42,240 nt of DNA. Source: an uncultured archaeon (GTDB lineage Archaea; Asgardarchaeota; Hermodarchaeia; Hermodarchaeales; Hermodarchaeaceae). The DNA lies in contig CAYFXC010000006.1 of NCBI GenBank assembly GCA_964347045.1, forward strand, positions 100,425 through 142,664, read 5' to 3'. The position numbers and the translations under genes are program-made. This document shows positions 20,720 through 39,407 of the stretch, piece after piece (positions within the stretch are counted from its first letter, which is position 1; each line of letters opens with the position of its first letter). Under the pieces are notes generated by a model that saw only the letters and a list, made by a program, of their open reading frames with translations, searched no databases and was not told where the DNA came from.

Positions 20720-21253
20720 TCAGCCTTTAAACTCAGAACTTAACAAATCATAAAGCAGAATATCATGGTACTTACCTTCAAAAAGCGAAGCCTGTCGGCG
20801 TCGTCCGCCAGGCTTAAATCCAATTTTTTCGTACACGTGCTGAGCTTGTTCATTAATCTCATGTGTAAAAAGAAAAATTCGGCGAAGGTTTAATTGGCGA
20901 AATCCAAAACTCAGAAGAAGCTTTAAGGCCTCTGATCCATAGCCCTTTCCTCTAAGATGTTTATCGTATATTGCAATCATAAGTTCAGCTTTTTGGTTGA
21001 TTTTACTAATATGAAAAAGCCCACAAACCCCAAGAAATGTTTTGGGTCTAATGCGTTCAATAACGAAGAAATAGCTGCTATGAGTTTTTCGTGCATCCCA
21101 GGTTTTTCGAATCCATTCTTCGATATCGTCTTGTGAAAGAGGTGAAGGATCATCGAGAAACCGTCTAGCTTCTAGTGTATTATACAACTGGTTAATGGTT
21201 TTAGCATCCTCAAGCTCTAAACCACGGAGCTGAACAACAGTACCTTTGAACAT
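20720..21253 (-). CDS. GNAT acetyltransferase (RimJ/RimL/SpeG-like)
   Basis: 'RGKGYGSEAL', 'F..LNLRRI', 'N..A..VYEKIGF'. Confidence 0.9.
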   Translation of the reverse strand: MFKGTVVQLRGLELEDAKTINQLYNTLEARRFLDDPSPLSQDDIEEWIRKTWDARKTHSSYFFVIERIRPKTFLGVCGLFHISKINQKAELMIAIYDKHLRGKGYGSEALKLLLSFGFRQLNLRRIFLFTHEINEQAQHVYEKIGFKPGGRRRQASLFEGKYHDILLYDLLSSEFKG

Positions 21254-21260
21254 CTATTGT

Positions 21261-21827
21261 TTACTCCGTTAACATTGGATAAGAGGGTGAATGTTGTTTT
21301 CGAAATTCTTCTTCAAGTATATCCATTAAAAGCGTATCTTTGAATTTTCCATCTTGAAAGAGAGCTTGGCGATGACGAGCGGATTGTGTGAAGCCTACTT
21401 TTTCATACGCACGAATTGCCCGTAGATTGTCCTCGTTTACGACGAGATATATGCTGTGAAGATTGAGGAAATTAAAGCCATATCCCATAAGGAGATTGAG
21501 TGCCTCTTGTCCGCATCCTTTACTCCAATATTTTTTATTCCAAATCGCTATTCCAAGTTCGGCCGAGCGATTAATCGGATGAATTGAAAAAAGACTACAT
21601 GTTCCGATGAGCAACTTTTTTTCTTTTAGTTCAATACCAAAGACGTATTCGATGCCTTTTTTTCGGTTTTCCCAAGTGTTGCGGATCCATTGTTCTTCTT
21701 CATCTTTAGACACTGGAATTGGATGCCCGAGAAATTGACGGAGTTCAACATCATTAAAGTGTTTGAGAATCTCGTCAACATCTGAAAGCTCTAGTCCTCG
21801 AAGAAATATTTTGTCACCAGTAATCAC
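21261..21827 (-). CDS. GNAT acetyltransferase (RimJ/RimL/SpeG-like), paralogue of the downstream gene
   Basis: 'AELGIAI', 'WSKGCGQEAL', 'NLRAIRAYEKVGF'. Confidence 0.9.
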   Translation of the reverse strand: MITGDKIFLRGLELSDVDEILKHFNDVELRQFLGHPIPVSKDEEEQWIRNTWENRKKGIEYVFGIELKEKKLLIGTCSLFSIHPINRSAELGIAIWNKKYWSKGCGQEALNLLMGYGFNFLNLHSIYLVVNEDNLRAIRAYEKVGFTQSARHRQALFQDGKFKDTLLMDILEEEFRKQHSPSYPMLTE

Positions 21828-21909: not shown

Positions 21910-22437
21910 CTAGTAATTCCAACCCATCATCTGTCTAAGCGCATGTCCTGTAAAACTTAATACTAAAATAAAAGGCGTAGCTAGCACTAAAAACAGGATG
22001 AAACTTTGTAGATAGAGAAGAGTAAAACCTACAAAGACTTCTGGGAGAATAGAAGCCCAATCTGGATTGAAGCCCCAAATCCATTGCCACCCGGGTATAA
22101 GCGTTGAACCATAAGCAGGATTGACAAAGAGAAGACCCAAAATAATGAAATAGTTGAAAATGAGAAATAGGAAAGGTCCTAAGAAGCCCGCTACGATAAC
22201 ATCTTTGGTTTCAAAGTTGGCAAGAAAGCCCACGAGAAAAGCCATACCACCGAAGACAAAAAGATAGATGAAGAAGTCCAATGCTGCTGTGGGTGAAAGT
22301 GGATTAATGAGATATGTAAACTTTGTGGCAAAAATGAAGAAATGAAGCCAGTCGATTCCAATGAAAGCGATACACATAATCCCTGCAATAACGAGGGTGT
22401 GTCGCCACCTGACTCGGGGTTTTATATCTTGTGCCAT
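21910..22437 (-). CDS. Hypothetical integral membrane protein (~4 TM)
   Basis: Hydrophobic segments throughout; GAGG upstream of ATG; co-oriented with the GNATs. Confidence 0.7.
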   Translation of the reverse strand: MAQDIKPRVRWRHTLVIAGIMCIAFIGIDWLHFFIFATKFTYLINPLSPTAALDFFIYLFVFGGMAFLVGFLANFETKDVIVAGFLGPFLFLIFNYFIILGLLFVNPAYGSTLIPGWQWIWGFNPDWASILPEVFVGFTLLYLQSFILFLVLATPFILVLSFTGHALRQMMGWNY

Positions 22438-22586: not shown

Positions 22587-23105
22587 CTATAGAGGAATGA
22601 TGCTTACGCCAAAATAGACAACTGAACGATACAGTTCAAGCCGCCCATTAATAGTTTCAGCAAGGAAGGTAGTTTGAACTAGTGGTTCCAGCAAAAGAAA
22701 CCAATTCCAATTCCCACTCGATTCAGCTGCACTCAAGAGAGAATCATCATCCGCTGTAAGGGAAAAATACCAATTAAAGGGGCGATTTTCACCCGGTGGA
22801 ATTATAGTTCGACTCCCCTTAAACCCAAACCCATAGTAGGGTTGTTGGCCATTCAAGAACAGATGTGTATCAGTATGAATCAGATCGGTTGATAAAGTTA
22901 AGGAGGGGTTATAGATACGACCAGTCACTTGCACTCGATGGTAGGTTCCACTTGTTTCGTTTTTCATAACGCGAATCTCTGTGATTTCGTACGAAAAACT
23001 AAGAGACCGATAAGTATCGGCTTGATAAAACGTAGATAGCCCAAGCAAGACACTCGAGCCAAGGATAATTGATAAAAAGATAAGAACGCGGGTCCTGCGA
23101 AACAT
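22587..23105 (-). CDS. Membrane-anchored beta-sandwich protein, possibly LEA_2/WHy-like
   Basis: N-terminal TM, beta-rich body with 'IYNPS' and 'LFLNG' motifs typical of LEA_2-like folds. Confidence 0.55.
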   Translation of the reverse strand: MFRRTRVLIFLSIILGSSVLLGLSTFYQADTYRSLSFSYEITEIRVMKNETSGTYHRVQVTGRIYNPSLTLSTDLIHTDTHLFLNGQQPYYGFGFKGSRTIIPPGENRPFNWYFSLTADDDSLLSAAESSGNWNWFLLLEPLVQTTFLAETINGRLELYRSVVYFGVSIIPL

Positions 23106-23303
23106 TTCAACTCAACACCGGTGGATTCCATTTTGCTAAGTTTTCTCCCTCTATTAAGTCAATGATGAAGGCAAAAATATTATGAAAAAAATCTTTGATG
23201 AGAAATTTATGGGTCGAGCGGTTTTTTCACAGATGCTGTCAAGATAGAGAATTTTTAAGGTTGAAGTTTGTTGAAGTATCCTATTGGTCACAGGTGATTT
23301 TTA

Positions 23304-24707
23304 GTGGTCCGATTTCGAAAAACCCAACTTTACTCCGTGTGGTTTATCCTCATAATTGCCTTATTCACAATTAATTGGGTGGGATTACGAGAGCGATATG
23401 TAACAGATACCTATTCTACAAATAATGTTAGGCAAATTGCCATAGGTGATTTAGATGTCTTTAAGCCAGGACTGGAAATGGCTTATATCACACCTTCCAG
23501 TCTCAACGTTATCGGTGGACTTACTTCGAGCTCTTGGCAAAATACCACATTTCGAAATTCAAACTGGGAAACTAATCCACTAATAGCTTTGACTGTGGGA
23601 GATTTTGACATCAACCATAAAGGTGACGAAATAGCGGTTTTAACTCTTAACGGAACACTGCTCATGATATACCGAGGAGCAACTGCCTGGCAAAGCGTTT
23701 ACATTGGTTCGCTTCCCGATGGATCACCTGCATGGACATCCAATAGTATGTTTTCAGGTCAACTCATTACAACTTCCGGAGCAAACGAAATAGTGATTTT
23801 GGGACAATATTACAACTGGTCCACAACAACTACGACAGGCCGGATTTTTGTAGCAAACCGATTAGACAACACAACCTGGCAGATTGTGCAAATCCATGTT
23901 GAACCGAACCCACTCTTATGTGGTACTGCAGGTGATGTTGATAGGTTTCATGATGGTGAAGAGCTAATTGGTGGAGGAGTAAACACTGGTGTGTTCATCC
24001 TGAGTTATGATAATGGGAGTTGGATCGAAGAACGGTTAACATTATGGTCAGACCCAATACGTTCAATTGCTGTAGGAGATTTCATGATTCAACCATCGGG
24101 GAACGAAATCTCAGCAGTAAAAGATCAGGATATTTTTGCTTTTTACAAAGAATCCGGAGAGTGGAGACCAAGCACAATCTGGTCGGCAAGATTAATGGGA
24201 ACGGAAATTGATTCAGTCTTTGTTGGTGACTTTGAGCCCTTTAGCCCCGGACTAGAAGTAATGGGTCTTGGATCTGTTTATGAAAGTTATCAACCAATTC
24301 TGGTGGTCCTAAAATATTCATCTAAGTGGTTTCCAGTAGCCCAATGGAATTTAGCAGAATTCCCCATTAGTGTTGCTACTACTAATTTTCATTTCAACCG
24401 CATGGGAACCGAGGTCATACTTGCTCACACACCTCAAACCACGGTACTATCAGTTCCCAACATTATTGATCGAACTATACGAGCGGGTCAAGCCGTTCTA
24501 CTTCCTGCACTCTTACTTCTTCCAGCAACAATAATCTTGTTTGCATTAGCTGATTACATAGGACGCGTATCTGAAACACGTCGCCGAAATCGAACCCTAG
24601 AAATGATAAGAAAAGGTTTTGTGAAATGTCCAGTATGTAAACGCTTCATTCCCAAAGATAAAGCAGAAGCCCATAGAAAATGGCATAGAATCCAGCAGTT
24701 TCGGTAA
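23304..24707 (+). CDS. FG-GAP-like 7-bladed beta-propeller membrane protein with C-terminal TM and C2H2 zinc finger
   Basis: Seven 'hxhGDhD....GxEhh' repeats; N-terminal signal/anchor; TM 'AVLLPALLLLPATIILFALA'; 'CPVC-x11-HRKWH'; SD AGGTGA before GTG. Confidence 0.82.
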   Translation: MVRFRKTQLYSVWFILIIALFTINWVGLRERYVTDTYSTNNVRQIAIGDLDVFKPGLEMAYITPSSLNVIGGLTSSSWQNTTFRNSNWETNPLIALTVGDFDINHKGDEIAVLTLNGTLLMIYRGATAWQSVYIGSLPDGSPAWTSNSMFSGQLITTSGANEIVILGQYYNWSTTTTTGRIFVANRLDNTTWQIVQIHVEPNPLLCGTAGDVDRFHDGEELIGGGVNTGVFILSYDNGSWIEERLTLWSDPIRSIAVGDFMIQPSGNEISAVKDQDIFAFYKESGEWRPSTIWSARLMGTEIDSVFVGDFEPFSPGLEVMGLGSVYESYQPILVVLKYSSKWFPVAQWNLAEFPISVATTNFHFNRMGTEVILAHTPQTTVLSVPNIIDRTIRAGQAVLLPALLLLPATIILFALADYIGRVSETRRRNRTLEMIRKGFVKCPVCKRFIPKDKAEAHRKWHRIQQFR

Positions 24708-38732: not shown

Positions 38733-39407
38733 CTATTCGAATTCAACTAGATCATGTGAGTCAAGTTGAACTCGGCAGATTGGACAGACACCTTTAACTT
38801 TTATATATTCTAGGAAGTGGATTCGATGAGCTAAGCCTTCACATTGGGGACATTGTAAAACTGAGTCGGTAGAGGTTATTGTTCTATCGCAAACCAAGCA
38901 GATGTGTTTTGGACCAGATCTTAGTGTTGGAGTTAATTCTATTTTAGAGCCGTCGACGAGTTCATGAGGATCTAAATCTGTTTTACAACGTGGGCAGACA
39001 CCTTTGACTTTCAGATATTCTAGAAAATGAATTCGATGGGCTCGCCCTCGACAATGAGGACAGCTGAGTGTAGAATCGAGGGGGACAATAGAACAATTAC
39101 AAACCATGCAGACAGGTTGGGGGCTGTCACAATGTGGACAAACCGTAGTTTCAGCGAGAATCGTAGCTTCACATTCAGGACACATAGTCAATTGAACGTC
39201 GAGGTATTGAGGTTGAGACTGAGAGCGTTGCGCTTGACGTTTCATCTTGGATTGTTGTCGGGGTGACCAAGTTGTGCGTGAGCGGGCTCTTTCGGGGCGC
39301 GTTTCACGTCTGGTTTTTTCACAATCTCGTGCAATTCCAACACAGACTCCTATCACTATGATAAATGTTATTAGCCAAAAGATGGCTTCAGTGACCCCAA
39401 ATTGCAA
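38733..39407 (-). CDS. Membrane-anchored zinc-ribbon + tandem RING-variant protein
   Basis: N-terminal TM; CPEC..CPHC; two copies of C-x2-C-x12-C-x2-C-x4-H-x2-H-x10-CPxC. Confidence 0.82.
   Translation of the reverse strand: MQFGVTEAIFWLITFIIVIGVCVGIARDCEKTRRETRPERARSRTTWSPRQQSKMKRQAQRSQSQPQYLDVQLTMCPECEATILAETTVCPHCDSPQPVCMVCNCSIVPLDSTLSCPHCRGRAHRIHFLEYLKVKGVCPRCKTDLDPHELVDGSKIELTPTLRSGPKHICLVCDRTITSTDSVLQCPQCEGLAHRIHFLEYIKVKGVCPICRVQLDSHDLVEFE

Follow-up and report, generated by a model that had tools for sequence, protein, structure and literature searches.

How is a protein built that appears to carry a β-propeller and a small zinc finger on the two sides of an archaeal membrane, and what might it do there? 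The question is raised by an open reading frame (ORF) at 23304..24707 on the forward strand of a 42,240-nucleotide stretch of DNA (hereafter the window; contig C6:100425-142664) from an uncultured Asgard archaeon of the family Hermodarchaeaceae (assembly GCA_964347045.1; 2.58 Mb, 83 contigs, 89% complete). The ORF has a GTG start and 467 codons plus a stop, and its product of 467 amino acids (aa) is called the propeller-finger protein below. An initial annotation of the locus had described this product as an integrin-alpha-like seven-bladed receptor with a single transmembrane (TM) helix and a cytoplasmic finger spaced like the ubiquitin-binding UBZ3 finger of polymerase eta (Pol eta). The analysis presented here points to a seven-bladed propeller outside the cell, held by two membrane helices, with the zinc finger and both termini inside, and we are highly confident of this architecture and topology. 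Both domains are of known kinds; their combination in a two-helix topology was not turned up by the literature searches, which found no description of the architecture, just as the initial annotation had failed to recognise one.

Overall architecture

An AlphaFold2 model was built on an alignment of 22 close homologues and reached a predicted local distance difference test (pLDDT) score of 87.3 and a predicted template modelling (pTM) score of 0.77. These 22 sequences form the core alignment of the analysis; a 29-member set adds distant proteins of the same architecture at 19-41% identity. The model contains a helix at residues 6-25, 28 β-strands between residues 32 and 384, a long helix at 387-436, two strands at 439-441 and 448-450, and a terminal helix at 451-466.

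Read from the N-terminus along the forward strand, the protein begins with a predicted cytoplasmic stub (residues 1-8, net charge +3) and membrane helix 1 (residues 9-28; together 23304..23387), as judged from hydropathy, charges and the model, with N24, W25, G27, R31 and Y32 conserved around the helix. The predicted extracellular propeller follows (residues 32-384; 23397..24455), a block modelled with pLDDT 79-97, in which the seven blades span residues 32-71, 78-124, 129-186, 192-236, 239-283, 286-338 and 342-384. Conservation then marks an outer juxtamembrane motif, P-N-x-x-D-R-T-x-R-A-G-Q (residues 385-396; 24456..24491), in which P385, D389 and R390 are invariant and R393 and A394 nearly so. 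Membrane helix 2 (residues 397-419; 24492..24560) is supported by hydropathy, model and conservation and holds the invariant prolines P401 and P407. It leads into a putative cytoplasmic basic helix with an R-R-R run and an invariant L-E-M (residues 420-437; 24561..24614), as given by the model and by conservation, and the protein ends in a ββα zinc finger (residues 438-467; 24615..24704) defined by the model and by invariant ligands.

All seven blade motifs quoted in the initial annotation are present, and the 28 modelled strands fall into seven four-stranded blades. The TM helix, the basic helix and the C-x2-C-x11-H-x3-H finger at 24627-24686 were likewise all found, with exact coordinates. 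The count of TM helices has to be corrected, since the protein has two: the conserved N-terminal helix (9-28) had been overlooked. That the blades close into a ring is suggested by the strand order and by full-length superpositions on known structures.

Membrane topology and orientation

Two segments, centred on residues 17-21 and 401-413, pass a hydropathy criterion of a Kyte-Doolittle mean above 1.6 over 19 residues. The net charge is +3 before membrane helix 1 and +3 in the first 15 residues after membrane helix 2, versus +1 on each propeller side, and the 48-residue tail as a whole has 16 Lys/Arg versus 4 Asp/Glu, a net charge of +12. Five N-x-S/T sequons in the propeller (N80, N116, N171, N189 and N237) are kept in 14-21 of the 22 homologues. 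This charge bias and the conserved sequons together indicate that the propeller is extracellular and that both termini are cytoplasmic, so that propeller and finger would lie on opposite sides of the membrane, as first proposed; at the level of sequence the orientation is strongly supported.

Membrane helix 1 is probably a retained signal-anchor. Its mean pairwise identity is 71%, versus 50% for the propeller, and an N-terminal helix more conserved than the ectodomain argues for an anchor that is kept and works with helix 2, and against a cleaved signal peptide. About 4-7 residues separate helix 1 from the first strand, and two residues separate the last strand from helix 2; with gaps as short as these the propeller must sit directly on the membrane, without a stalk. 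Going by the strand order, the conserved acidic AB loops would then lie on the membrane side and the DA and BC loops on the outward side, as in integrins.

Class of the propeller

Each blade consists of a Trp-bearing strand, a strand ending in G-D, a D-x-D-x4-G loop and a strand that starts with an invariant Glu (E58, E109, E162, E220, E268, E318 and E370; loop type GD-x-D-x4-G-x-E). A VIA structure search with residues 26-390 against PDB representatives aligned 294-342 residues to seven-bladed propellers at Z 26.6-29.9. The top match was aldos-2-ulose dehydratase (AUDH; 4a7k, Z 29.9, 342 residues), and further matches included BBS2 (Z 28.5), ITFG2 of KICSTOR (Z 27.7) and the lectin BP39L (Z 26.4). 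Integrins alphaIIb, alphaV and alpha5 were superposed over 330-334 residues at Z 26.6-26.9 and a root-mean-square deviation (rmsd) of 3.3 Å. The seven-bladed propeller first read from the repeats is thus borne out by 28 modelled strands and by full-length superposition on integrin heads. With Foldseek the top match of the whole model was CRTAC1; integrin chains were not among the Foldseek PDB matches listed and surfaced with VIA-align only.

Sequence comparison connects the propeller to a family at one remove. A PDB sequence search with the whole-protein profile found nothing significant, the protein itself drew no FG-GAP model from Pfam, even with matches up to E 10 allowed, and has no match of its own to PF13517 above the gathering score, so that membership of VCBS/FG-GAP_3 is transitive only. 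It runs through phmmer matches to P0032 (E 2.2e-27) and P0038 (E 1.3e-17), both of which pass FG-GAP_3 (59.9 and 40.4 bits; cut-off 26.9). Among the 48 nearest outgroup proteins, 12 carry FG-GAP_3, 3 AUDH_beta_propeller and 2 RGL11_C. The neighbours given by a protein language model, bacterial BamB-like FG-GAP_3 proteins, score 0.79, which is weak and serves as a lead only.

The hallmark of integrin-type blades is a DxDxDG calcium loop that joins strands A and B (PMC8023676). This loop gave zero matches in 29 of 29 family members, whose loops read D-x-D-x4-G-x-E. Between the end of the last strand (residue 384) and the start of the membrane helix (387) there is no room for thigh and calf leg domains. 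Because the DxDxDG loop, the space for legs and a Pfam FG-GAP match of its own are all missing, we conclude that the domain is a divergent propeller of the VCBS/FG-GAP_3 supercluster and not an integrin alpha head. The label 'integrin-alpha-like' therefore stands at the level of superfamily and fold, integrin heads being placed in the same superfamily-level supercluster as VCBS/FG-GAP_3 (PMC8023676), and has to be given up for the loop, the legs and the family match.

With the integrin alpha head the protein shares a seven-bladed propeller in a membrane protein with a short cytoplasmic tail; unlike integrin alpha (PF01839), it carries a further membrane helix at its N-terminus, and its tail ends in a zinc finger. 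The VCBS/FG-GAP_3 family (PF13517; AUDH 4a7k, the PVL and BP39L lectins, ITFG2 and BBS2) is closer, in that it provides the best fold matches and has the acidic AB loop and the Trp-bearing strand. The propeller-finger protein departs from its members in the D-x-D-x4-G-x-E loop with one invariant Glu per blade and in remaining sub-threshold for every Pfam model. Known members are enzymes, lectins, toxin parts and cytoplasmic scaffolds, and none has such a topology together with a finger.

The C-terminal zinc finger

At the four ligands C442, C445, H457 and H461, neither the residues nor the spacing vary among the close homologues (22 of 22) or in the larger set that includes the distant members (29 of 29). 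The finger is therefore not a product of chance, and the conservation of its Cys and His residues, on which the first description had been made to depend, holds throughout the family. It is also the most conserved region of the protein, with a mean pairwise identity of 75% versus 50% for the propeller. Folded alone, the tail was predicted as a helix, a hairpin and a helix (pLDDT 86.7), and the finger block has pLDDT 87-92 and a ββα fold in both the full-length and the tail-alone model.

Among 48,161 PDB chains, the Pol eta UBZ 3wup ranked first for the finger (Z 4.4, rmsd 0.8 Å, 31 of 31 residues) and the RAD18 UBZ 5vf0 third (Z 3.2), and the Pol eta NMR structure 2i5o gave Z 4.2 with VIA-align 2. 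The Foldseek list for the finger was headed by the ubiquitin-binding fingers of TAX1BP1, WRNIP1, Pol eta and NDP52, with non-significant E. These scores are low in absolute terms, the domain having only about 31 residues, and equal ligand spacing by itself favours an equal predicted shape, which calls for caution over the likeness. The UBZ3 likeness noted at first is nevertheless upheld at the level of shape, with the same ligand spacing and the Pol eta UBZ as the top structural match with two aligners, and 'UBZ3-shaped' is a fair description of the modelled finger.

The sequence itself stays below the thresholds of the known finger families. Pfam zf_UBZ (PF18439) scored 11 bits with the whole protein and 15.9 bits with the tail alone (cut-off 25.6); it was touched sub-threshold by 9 of 12 tails (best E 0.0017), and zf-C2H2_4 was touched by 6 of 12 (best E 4e-4), none above the cut-off. 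The tail profile aligned with one gap to C2H2 fingers of designed or Zif268 type, at a per-finger independent E-value (i-E) of at least 0.14, and the x11 spacing is one residue short of the classical C2H2 pattern (PF00096/PF13894; C-x2-4-C-x12-H-x3-5-H). No solved UBZ chain stood among the 60 PDB sequence matches listed for the tail profile, which does not amount to an exclusion. The finger thus resembles Pol eta UBZ3 (3wup, 2i5o) and RAD18 UBZ4 (5vf0), its closest solved structures, in its CCHH ligands, its x2/x11/x3 spacing and its ββα fold; it is unlike them in being membrane-tethered, in its strongly basic tail, in giving no zf_UBZ match above the cut-off and in its ubiquitin-contact positions, which are replaced by K/R, T/I and F.

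The genome search gave no second copy of the finger. Of the 45 matches from a word-limited search, which covered proteins of more than 83 residues, 44 were members of the protein's own family or fragments on short contigs. The sole match from outside the family, P0156 (569 aa, NCBI source, E 1.9e-8), is a soluble protein with many tandem C-x2-C-x11-H-x3-H fingers of the unit K-C-P-K-C-K-K-x-I-x-K-G-N-M-K-x-H-M-E-I-H. Tk-TIP26 (2czr) was a weak match to the finger by sequence as well as by fold; the literature gave nothing usable on it and the lead was dropped.

A local likeness to a ribosomal protein was also seen. The knuckle G-F-V-K-C-P-V-C-K-R-F-I-P-K-D-K-A (24615-24665) resembles the zinc knuckle of the genome's own eS26 (L052:1462-1770): hhalign of the tail against this eS26 gave a probability of 67% (P 5e-5, 20 columns), the Pfam S26e model matched only the eS26 gene and the tail of the propeller-finger protein genome-wide, and PDB eS26 chains matched the tail profile at E 0.003-0.03. 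The likeness may point to RNA binding, to convergence or to descent of both knuckles from a common source; we take it as a lead only, and not as evidence for any of these.

Relation to ubiquitin

The genome encodes a ubiquitin of 82 aa that ends in GG (L021:1447-1692) and is 94-98% identical within the genus. It lies in a row with a 120-aa RING protein (zf-RING_2) and a 153-aa E2 (UQ_con) at L021:1084-2358 (G000 contig C8, ~43663-44937).

The fingers of Pol eta and FAAP20 have in common a helix motif D(-4)-A(0)-L(+3), and in FAAP20 a change of the D or the A abolishes ubiquitin binding (PMC4267625). In a ligand-anchored alignment this motif was not kept in any of the 29 family members. The D position is K459 in the window's protein and K, R, E, L, N or A, never D, across the family; the A position is I463 here and mostly T elsewhere; and the L position, F466, is the only one with a matching hydrophobic residue. 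The absence of the ubiquitin-contacting Asp, already pointed out in the initial annotation, is thereby established and extended to the whole D-A-L motif. Since the contact motif is replaced, canonical recognition of ubiquitin by the tail appears unlikely from its sequence. A complex prediction of the tail with the genome's ubiquitin scored 0.00; it was run without controls and counts neither for nor against binding.

Homologues and phyletic range

In 5.8 billion proteins, a word-indexed search picked out 25 relatives; their identities span 39-74%, and almost all are 466-472 aa long. HMMER, run exhaustively against 1.84 billion cluster representatives, gave 108 matches, of which just nine clusters (P0020, P0026-P0030, P0040, P0069 and P0104) have the full architecture, the others being larger or simpler propeller proteins. 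Homologues with a named source are labelled Promethearchaeota (Asgard), and single ones Hodarchaeota or Thorarchaeota. When 201 Asgard species genomes were searched with the family profile, a single copy turned up in each of 15 out of 19 sampled genomes of one Asgard family (f1, this genome counted), and none in the 182 others. A profile made from the three most distant members, at 19-23% identity, regained the f1 proteins over positions 5-453, finger included, and found nothing comparable in 381 other Asgard genomes. The gene is real, constrained, single-copy and lineage-restricted within the Asgard archaea, and the entire architecture with its finger is retained down to 19-23% identity.

One related propeller, P0033, has hydrophobic segments at both ends and no tail, so that the tail represents a specific addition to a propeller anchored in the membrane and not a shuffled module. 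A related-locus search of the genome collection gave only two unrelated propeller proteins, in a Thermoplasmata and a Phycisphaerae metagenome-assembled genome (MAG). On two short metagenome contigs (L040:22-1446 and L041:1152-2576) a 474-aa protein, 19% identical to that of the window, keeps the two membrane helices, the propeller and a CPIC-x11-H-x3-H finger; its gene sits between purS/purL and purM, a position that implies no functional link.

Functional interpretation

LINKIN offers the nearest architectural precedent. It is encoded by a single-copy gene and is an N-glycosylated, membrane-spanning protein with an atypical ectodomain of seven FG-GAP repeats, and cytoplasmic partners dock onto its short intracellular domain, which exceeds the remainder of the protein in conservation (PMC4275582). 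The propeller-finger protein resembles LINKIN/ITFG1 in being single-copy, in the seven-bladed propeller outside, in its sequons and in a short tail more conserved than the ectodomain, and the likeness is architectural only: LINKIN differs in its Dx(D/N)xDxxxD calcium motifs, its cleaved signal peptide, an extra membrane-proximal domain and a tail of 22-24 aa without a zinc finger. In bacteria, ToxR/CadC regulators and zinc-binding anti-sigma factors also join an extracytoplasmic sensor through the membrane to a small cytoplasmic binding module, there an N-terminal winged-helix or HxxxCxxC module; this is an analogy with the propeller-finger protein, without homology.

By analogy with LINKIN and integrins, we favour a surface receptor for binding or sensing whose tail docks one conserved cytoplasmic partner, a role for which the chances seem to us about even. 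In such a role the protein would be a glycosylated surface protein held by two membrane helices with both termini inside; the propeller would bind an external ligand, for instance a glycan or a protein that belongs to the envelope or to another cell; and the near-invariant tail would dock its one conserved partner in the cytoplasm. That partner would more probably be an acidic protein, a nucleic acid or an anionic membrane surface than canonically bound ubiquitin, because the ubiquitin-contact residues are replaced and the net charge of the tail is +12.

Several points weigh against a receptor of this kind. WD40 propellers follow closely behind the best fold matches (VIA Z 24-26), and the propeller fold is common to enzymes such as AUDH and to scaffolds, so the fold does not show a binding function. 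Conservation is no more than moderate (0.58-0.60) in the loops presumed to lie on the outer face. How the two membrane helices pack and which surface points outward are predictions from the strand order and from full-length superpositions. The gene neighbourhood is collinear throughout the close relatives in family f1 and consists of housekeeping genes, and such a context gives no functional link.

The composition of the tail, with its 16 basic and 4 acidic residues in 48 aa, would also suit a membrane-tethered regulator whose basic helix and finger bind DNA or RNA, either at the membrane, in the manner of ToxR and CadC, or after release by intramembrane proteolysis. The alignment of the tail profile to DNA-binding C2H2 fingers with its single gap, the 6 of 12 tails touching zf-C2H2_4 and the local likeness to the knuckle of eS26, an RNA-binding ribosomal protein, all point this way, as do the two invariant prolines of membrane helix 2; helix-breaking residues are typical of intramembrane protease substrates. 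However, the C2H2 matches are individually insignificant finger by finger (i-E at least 0.14), the base-reading positions are occupied by Pro (-1) and an invariant Ala (+6), there is a single finger only, and no target or conserved adjacent regulated gene is evident beyond the general collinearity; a basic juxtamembrane stretch is moreover expected anyway from the positive-inside rule. We regard such a regulator as unlikely. The same finger could instead work as a receptor for ubiquitin or a ubiquitin-like protein through a non-canonical surface, coupling the protein to the RING-ubiquitin-E2 set for sorting or turnover. It has exactly the ligand type and spacing of UBZ3, ubiquitin-binding fingers come first or close to first in three structural rankings (Foldseek, VIA-align 2), 9 of 12 tails touch zf_UBZ below the threshold, and the genome has the RING, the GG-ended ubiquitin and the E2 in a row, with the ubiquitin conserved across the family. 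Set against this are the replaced D-A-L motif, hydrophobic only at the Leu position (F466), the failure of every Pfam UBZ model to reach its cut-off, structural scores that are low in absolute terms and a shape that shared spacing alone could produce, and the net charge of +12, with which the tail looks more like a nucleic-acid- or lipid-binding peptide. A coupling of this kind is distinctly unlikely in our view, and a putative function of the finger as a receptor for archaeal ubiquitin or a ubiquitinated partner by such a surface is very unlikely. If true, it would be the first prokaryotic cell-surface receptor wired directly to the ubiquitin system, and an Asgard forerunner of the ubiquitin-dependent handling of membrane receptors in eukaryotes.

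An envelope scaffold of the BamB kind, or an enzyme of the AUDH or lyase kind, would need the finger merely to stabilise the tail or to hold it on anionic lipids. The best structural match is indeed an enzyme propeller (AUDH, Z 29.9), 3 of the 48 nearest relatives match AUDH_beta_propeller and 2 of 48 match RGL11_C, the language-model neighbours are BamB-like FG-GAP_3 proteins (score 0.79, a lead only), and the stalkless propeller sits on the membrane. No catalytic domain or motif was identified, however; conservation is higher in the finger and the L-E-M than in the ectodomain, which would be needless for a mere membrane tether; and the existence of the tail-less P0033 marks the tail as a specific addition. 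This explanation, too, appears improbable, and a surface receptor with a tail that docks one cytoplasmic partner is the reading that we retain.

Gene, expression signals and neighbourhood

The limits of the propeller-finger gene (23304..24707, forward strand) are supported by the ORF itself and by homologues of like length, and the gene is present in a single copy in the genome. A putative promoter and ribosome-binding region, read off the sequence, lies at 23250..23298 on the same strand, with a TATA-like A/T box at ~23250-23260, about 45 bases upstream of the GTG start, and a Shine-Dalgarno-like GGTGA site at 23293-23298, six bases 5' of the GTG. A search of public sequencing runs listed none with RNA of the gene, and its DNA in the probable source metagenome only.

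Upstream, on the opposite strand, lie two small membrane ORFs without a Pfam match (21910-22437 and 22587-23105) and an ABC-2 transporter pair; downstream, in convergent orientation and 8 bases away, are a nitronate-monooxygenase (NMO) family gene and a RidA gene. Since the flanking genes lie on the opposite strand, the propeller-finger gene is apparently transcribed alone. Its product is 32-66% identical among relatives, versus 75-87% for the neighbouring NMO gene; divergence faster than that of neighbours is typical of exposed surface proteins.

The product of 21910-22437 is a polytopic protein of 175 aa that is nearly restricted to family f1 (12 of 18 genomes) and whose gene is doubled in one relative (L014). 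It was considered as a functional partner because it adjoins the propeller-finger gene in most loci and is nearly family-restricted, and the idea was dropped when tblastn found no copy beside the gene in one relative (G091; L018), the whole region being collinear. The 172-aa product of 22587-23105 has an N-terminal hydrophobic segment followed by a soluble part, and tblastn gave no match to it in L013, L017, L018, L019 and L020. At 20720-21827, also on the reverse strand and upstream of the propeller-finger gene, two paralogous genes for GNAT acetyltransferases (Acetyltransf_3) stand in tandem; most relatives retain both, and each product cross-matches the locus of the other in relatives at 43-50% identity. 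Elsewhere in the window, 38733-39407 on the reverse strand encodes a membrane-anchored protein with repeated Cys/His fingers, whose Pfam matches are all sub-threshold (Prok-RING_1, 22.1 bits, cut-off 29.1; Zn_ribbon_6, 22.4 bits, cut-off 25).

Implications

Asgard archaea are searched for forerunners of the cell-surface and signalling machinery of eukaryotes. The propeller-finger protein unites two modules best known from eukaryotes, a propeller of the integrin/LINKIN type and a UBZ-shaped finger of the Pol eta type, and joins them from outside to inside in an organism that also carries a RING-ubiquitin-E2 set. The weight of this observation is limited by its confinement to one Asgard family and a few metagenomic relatives, by the missing ubiquitin-contact residues and by a function that we infer. 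If the tail has a defined partner, be it ubiquitin, a nucleic acid, or a cytoskeletal or ESCRT protein, the protein would represent a simple and testable form of transmembrane coupling in the archaeal relatives of eukaryotes.

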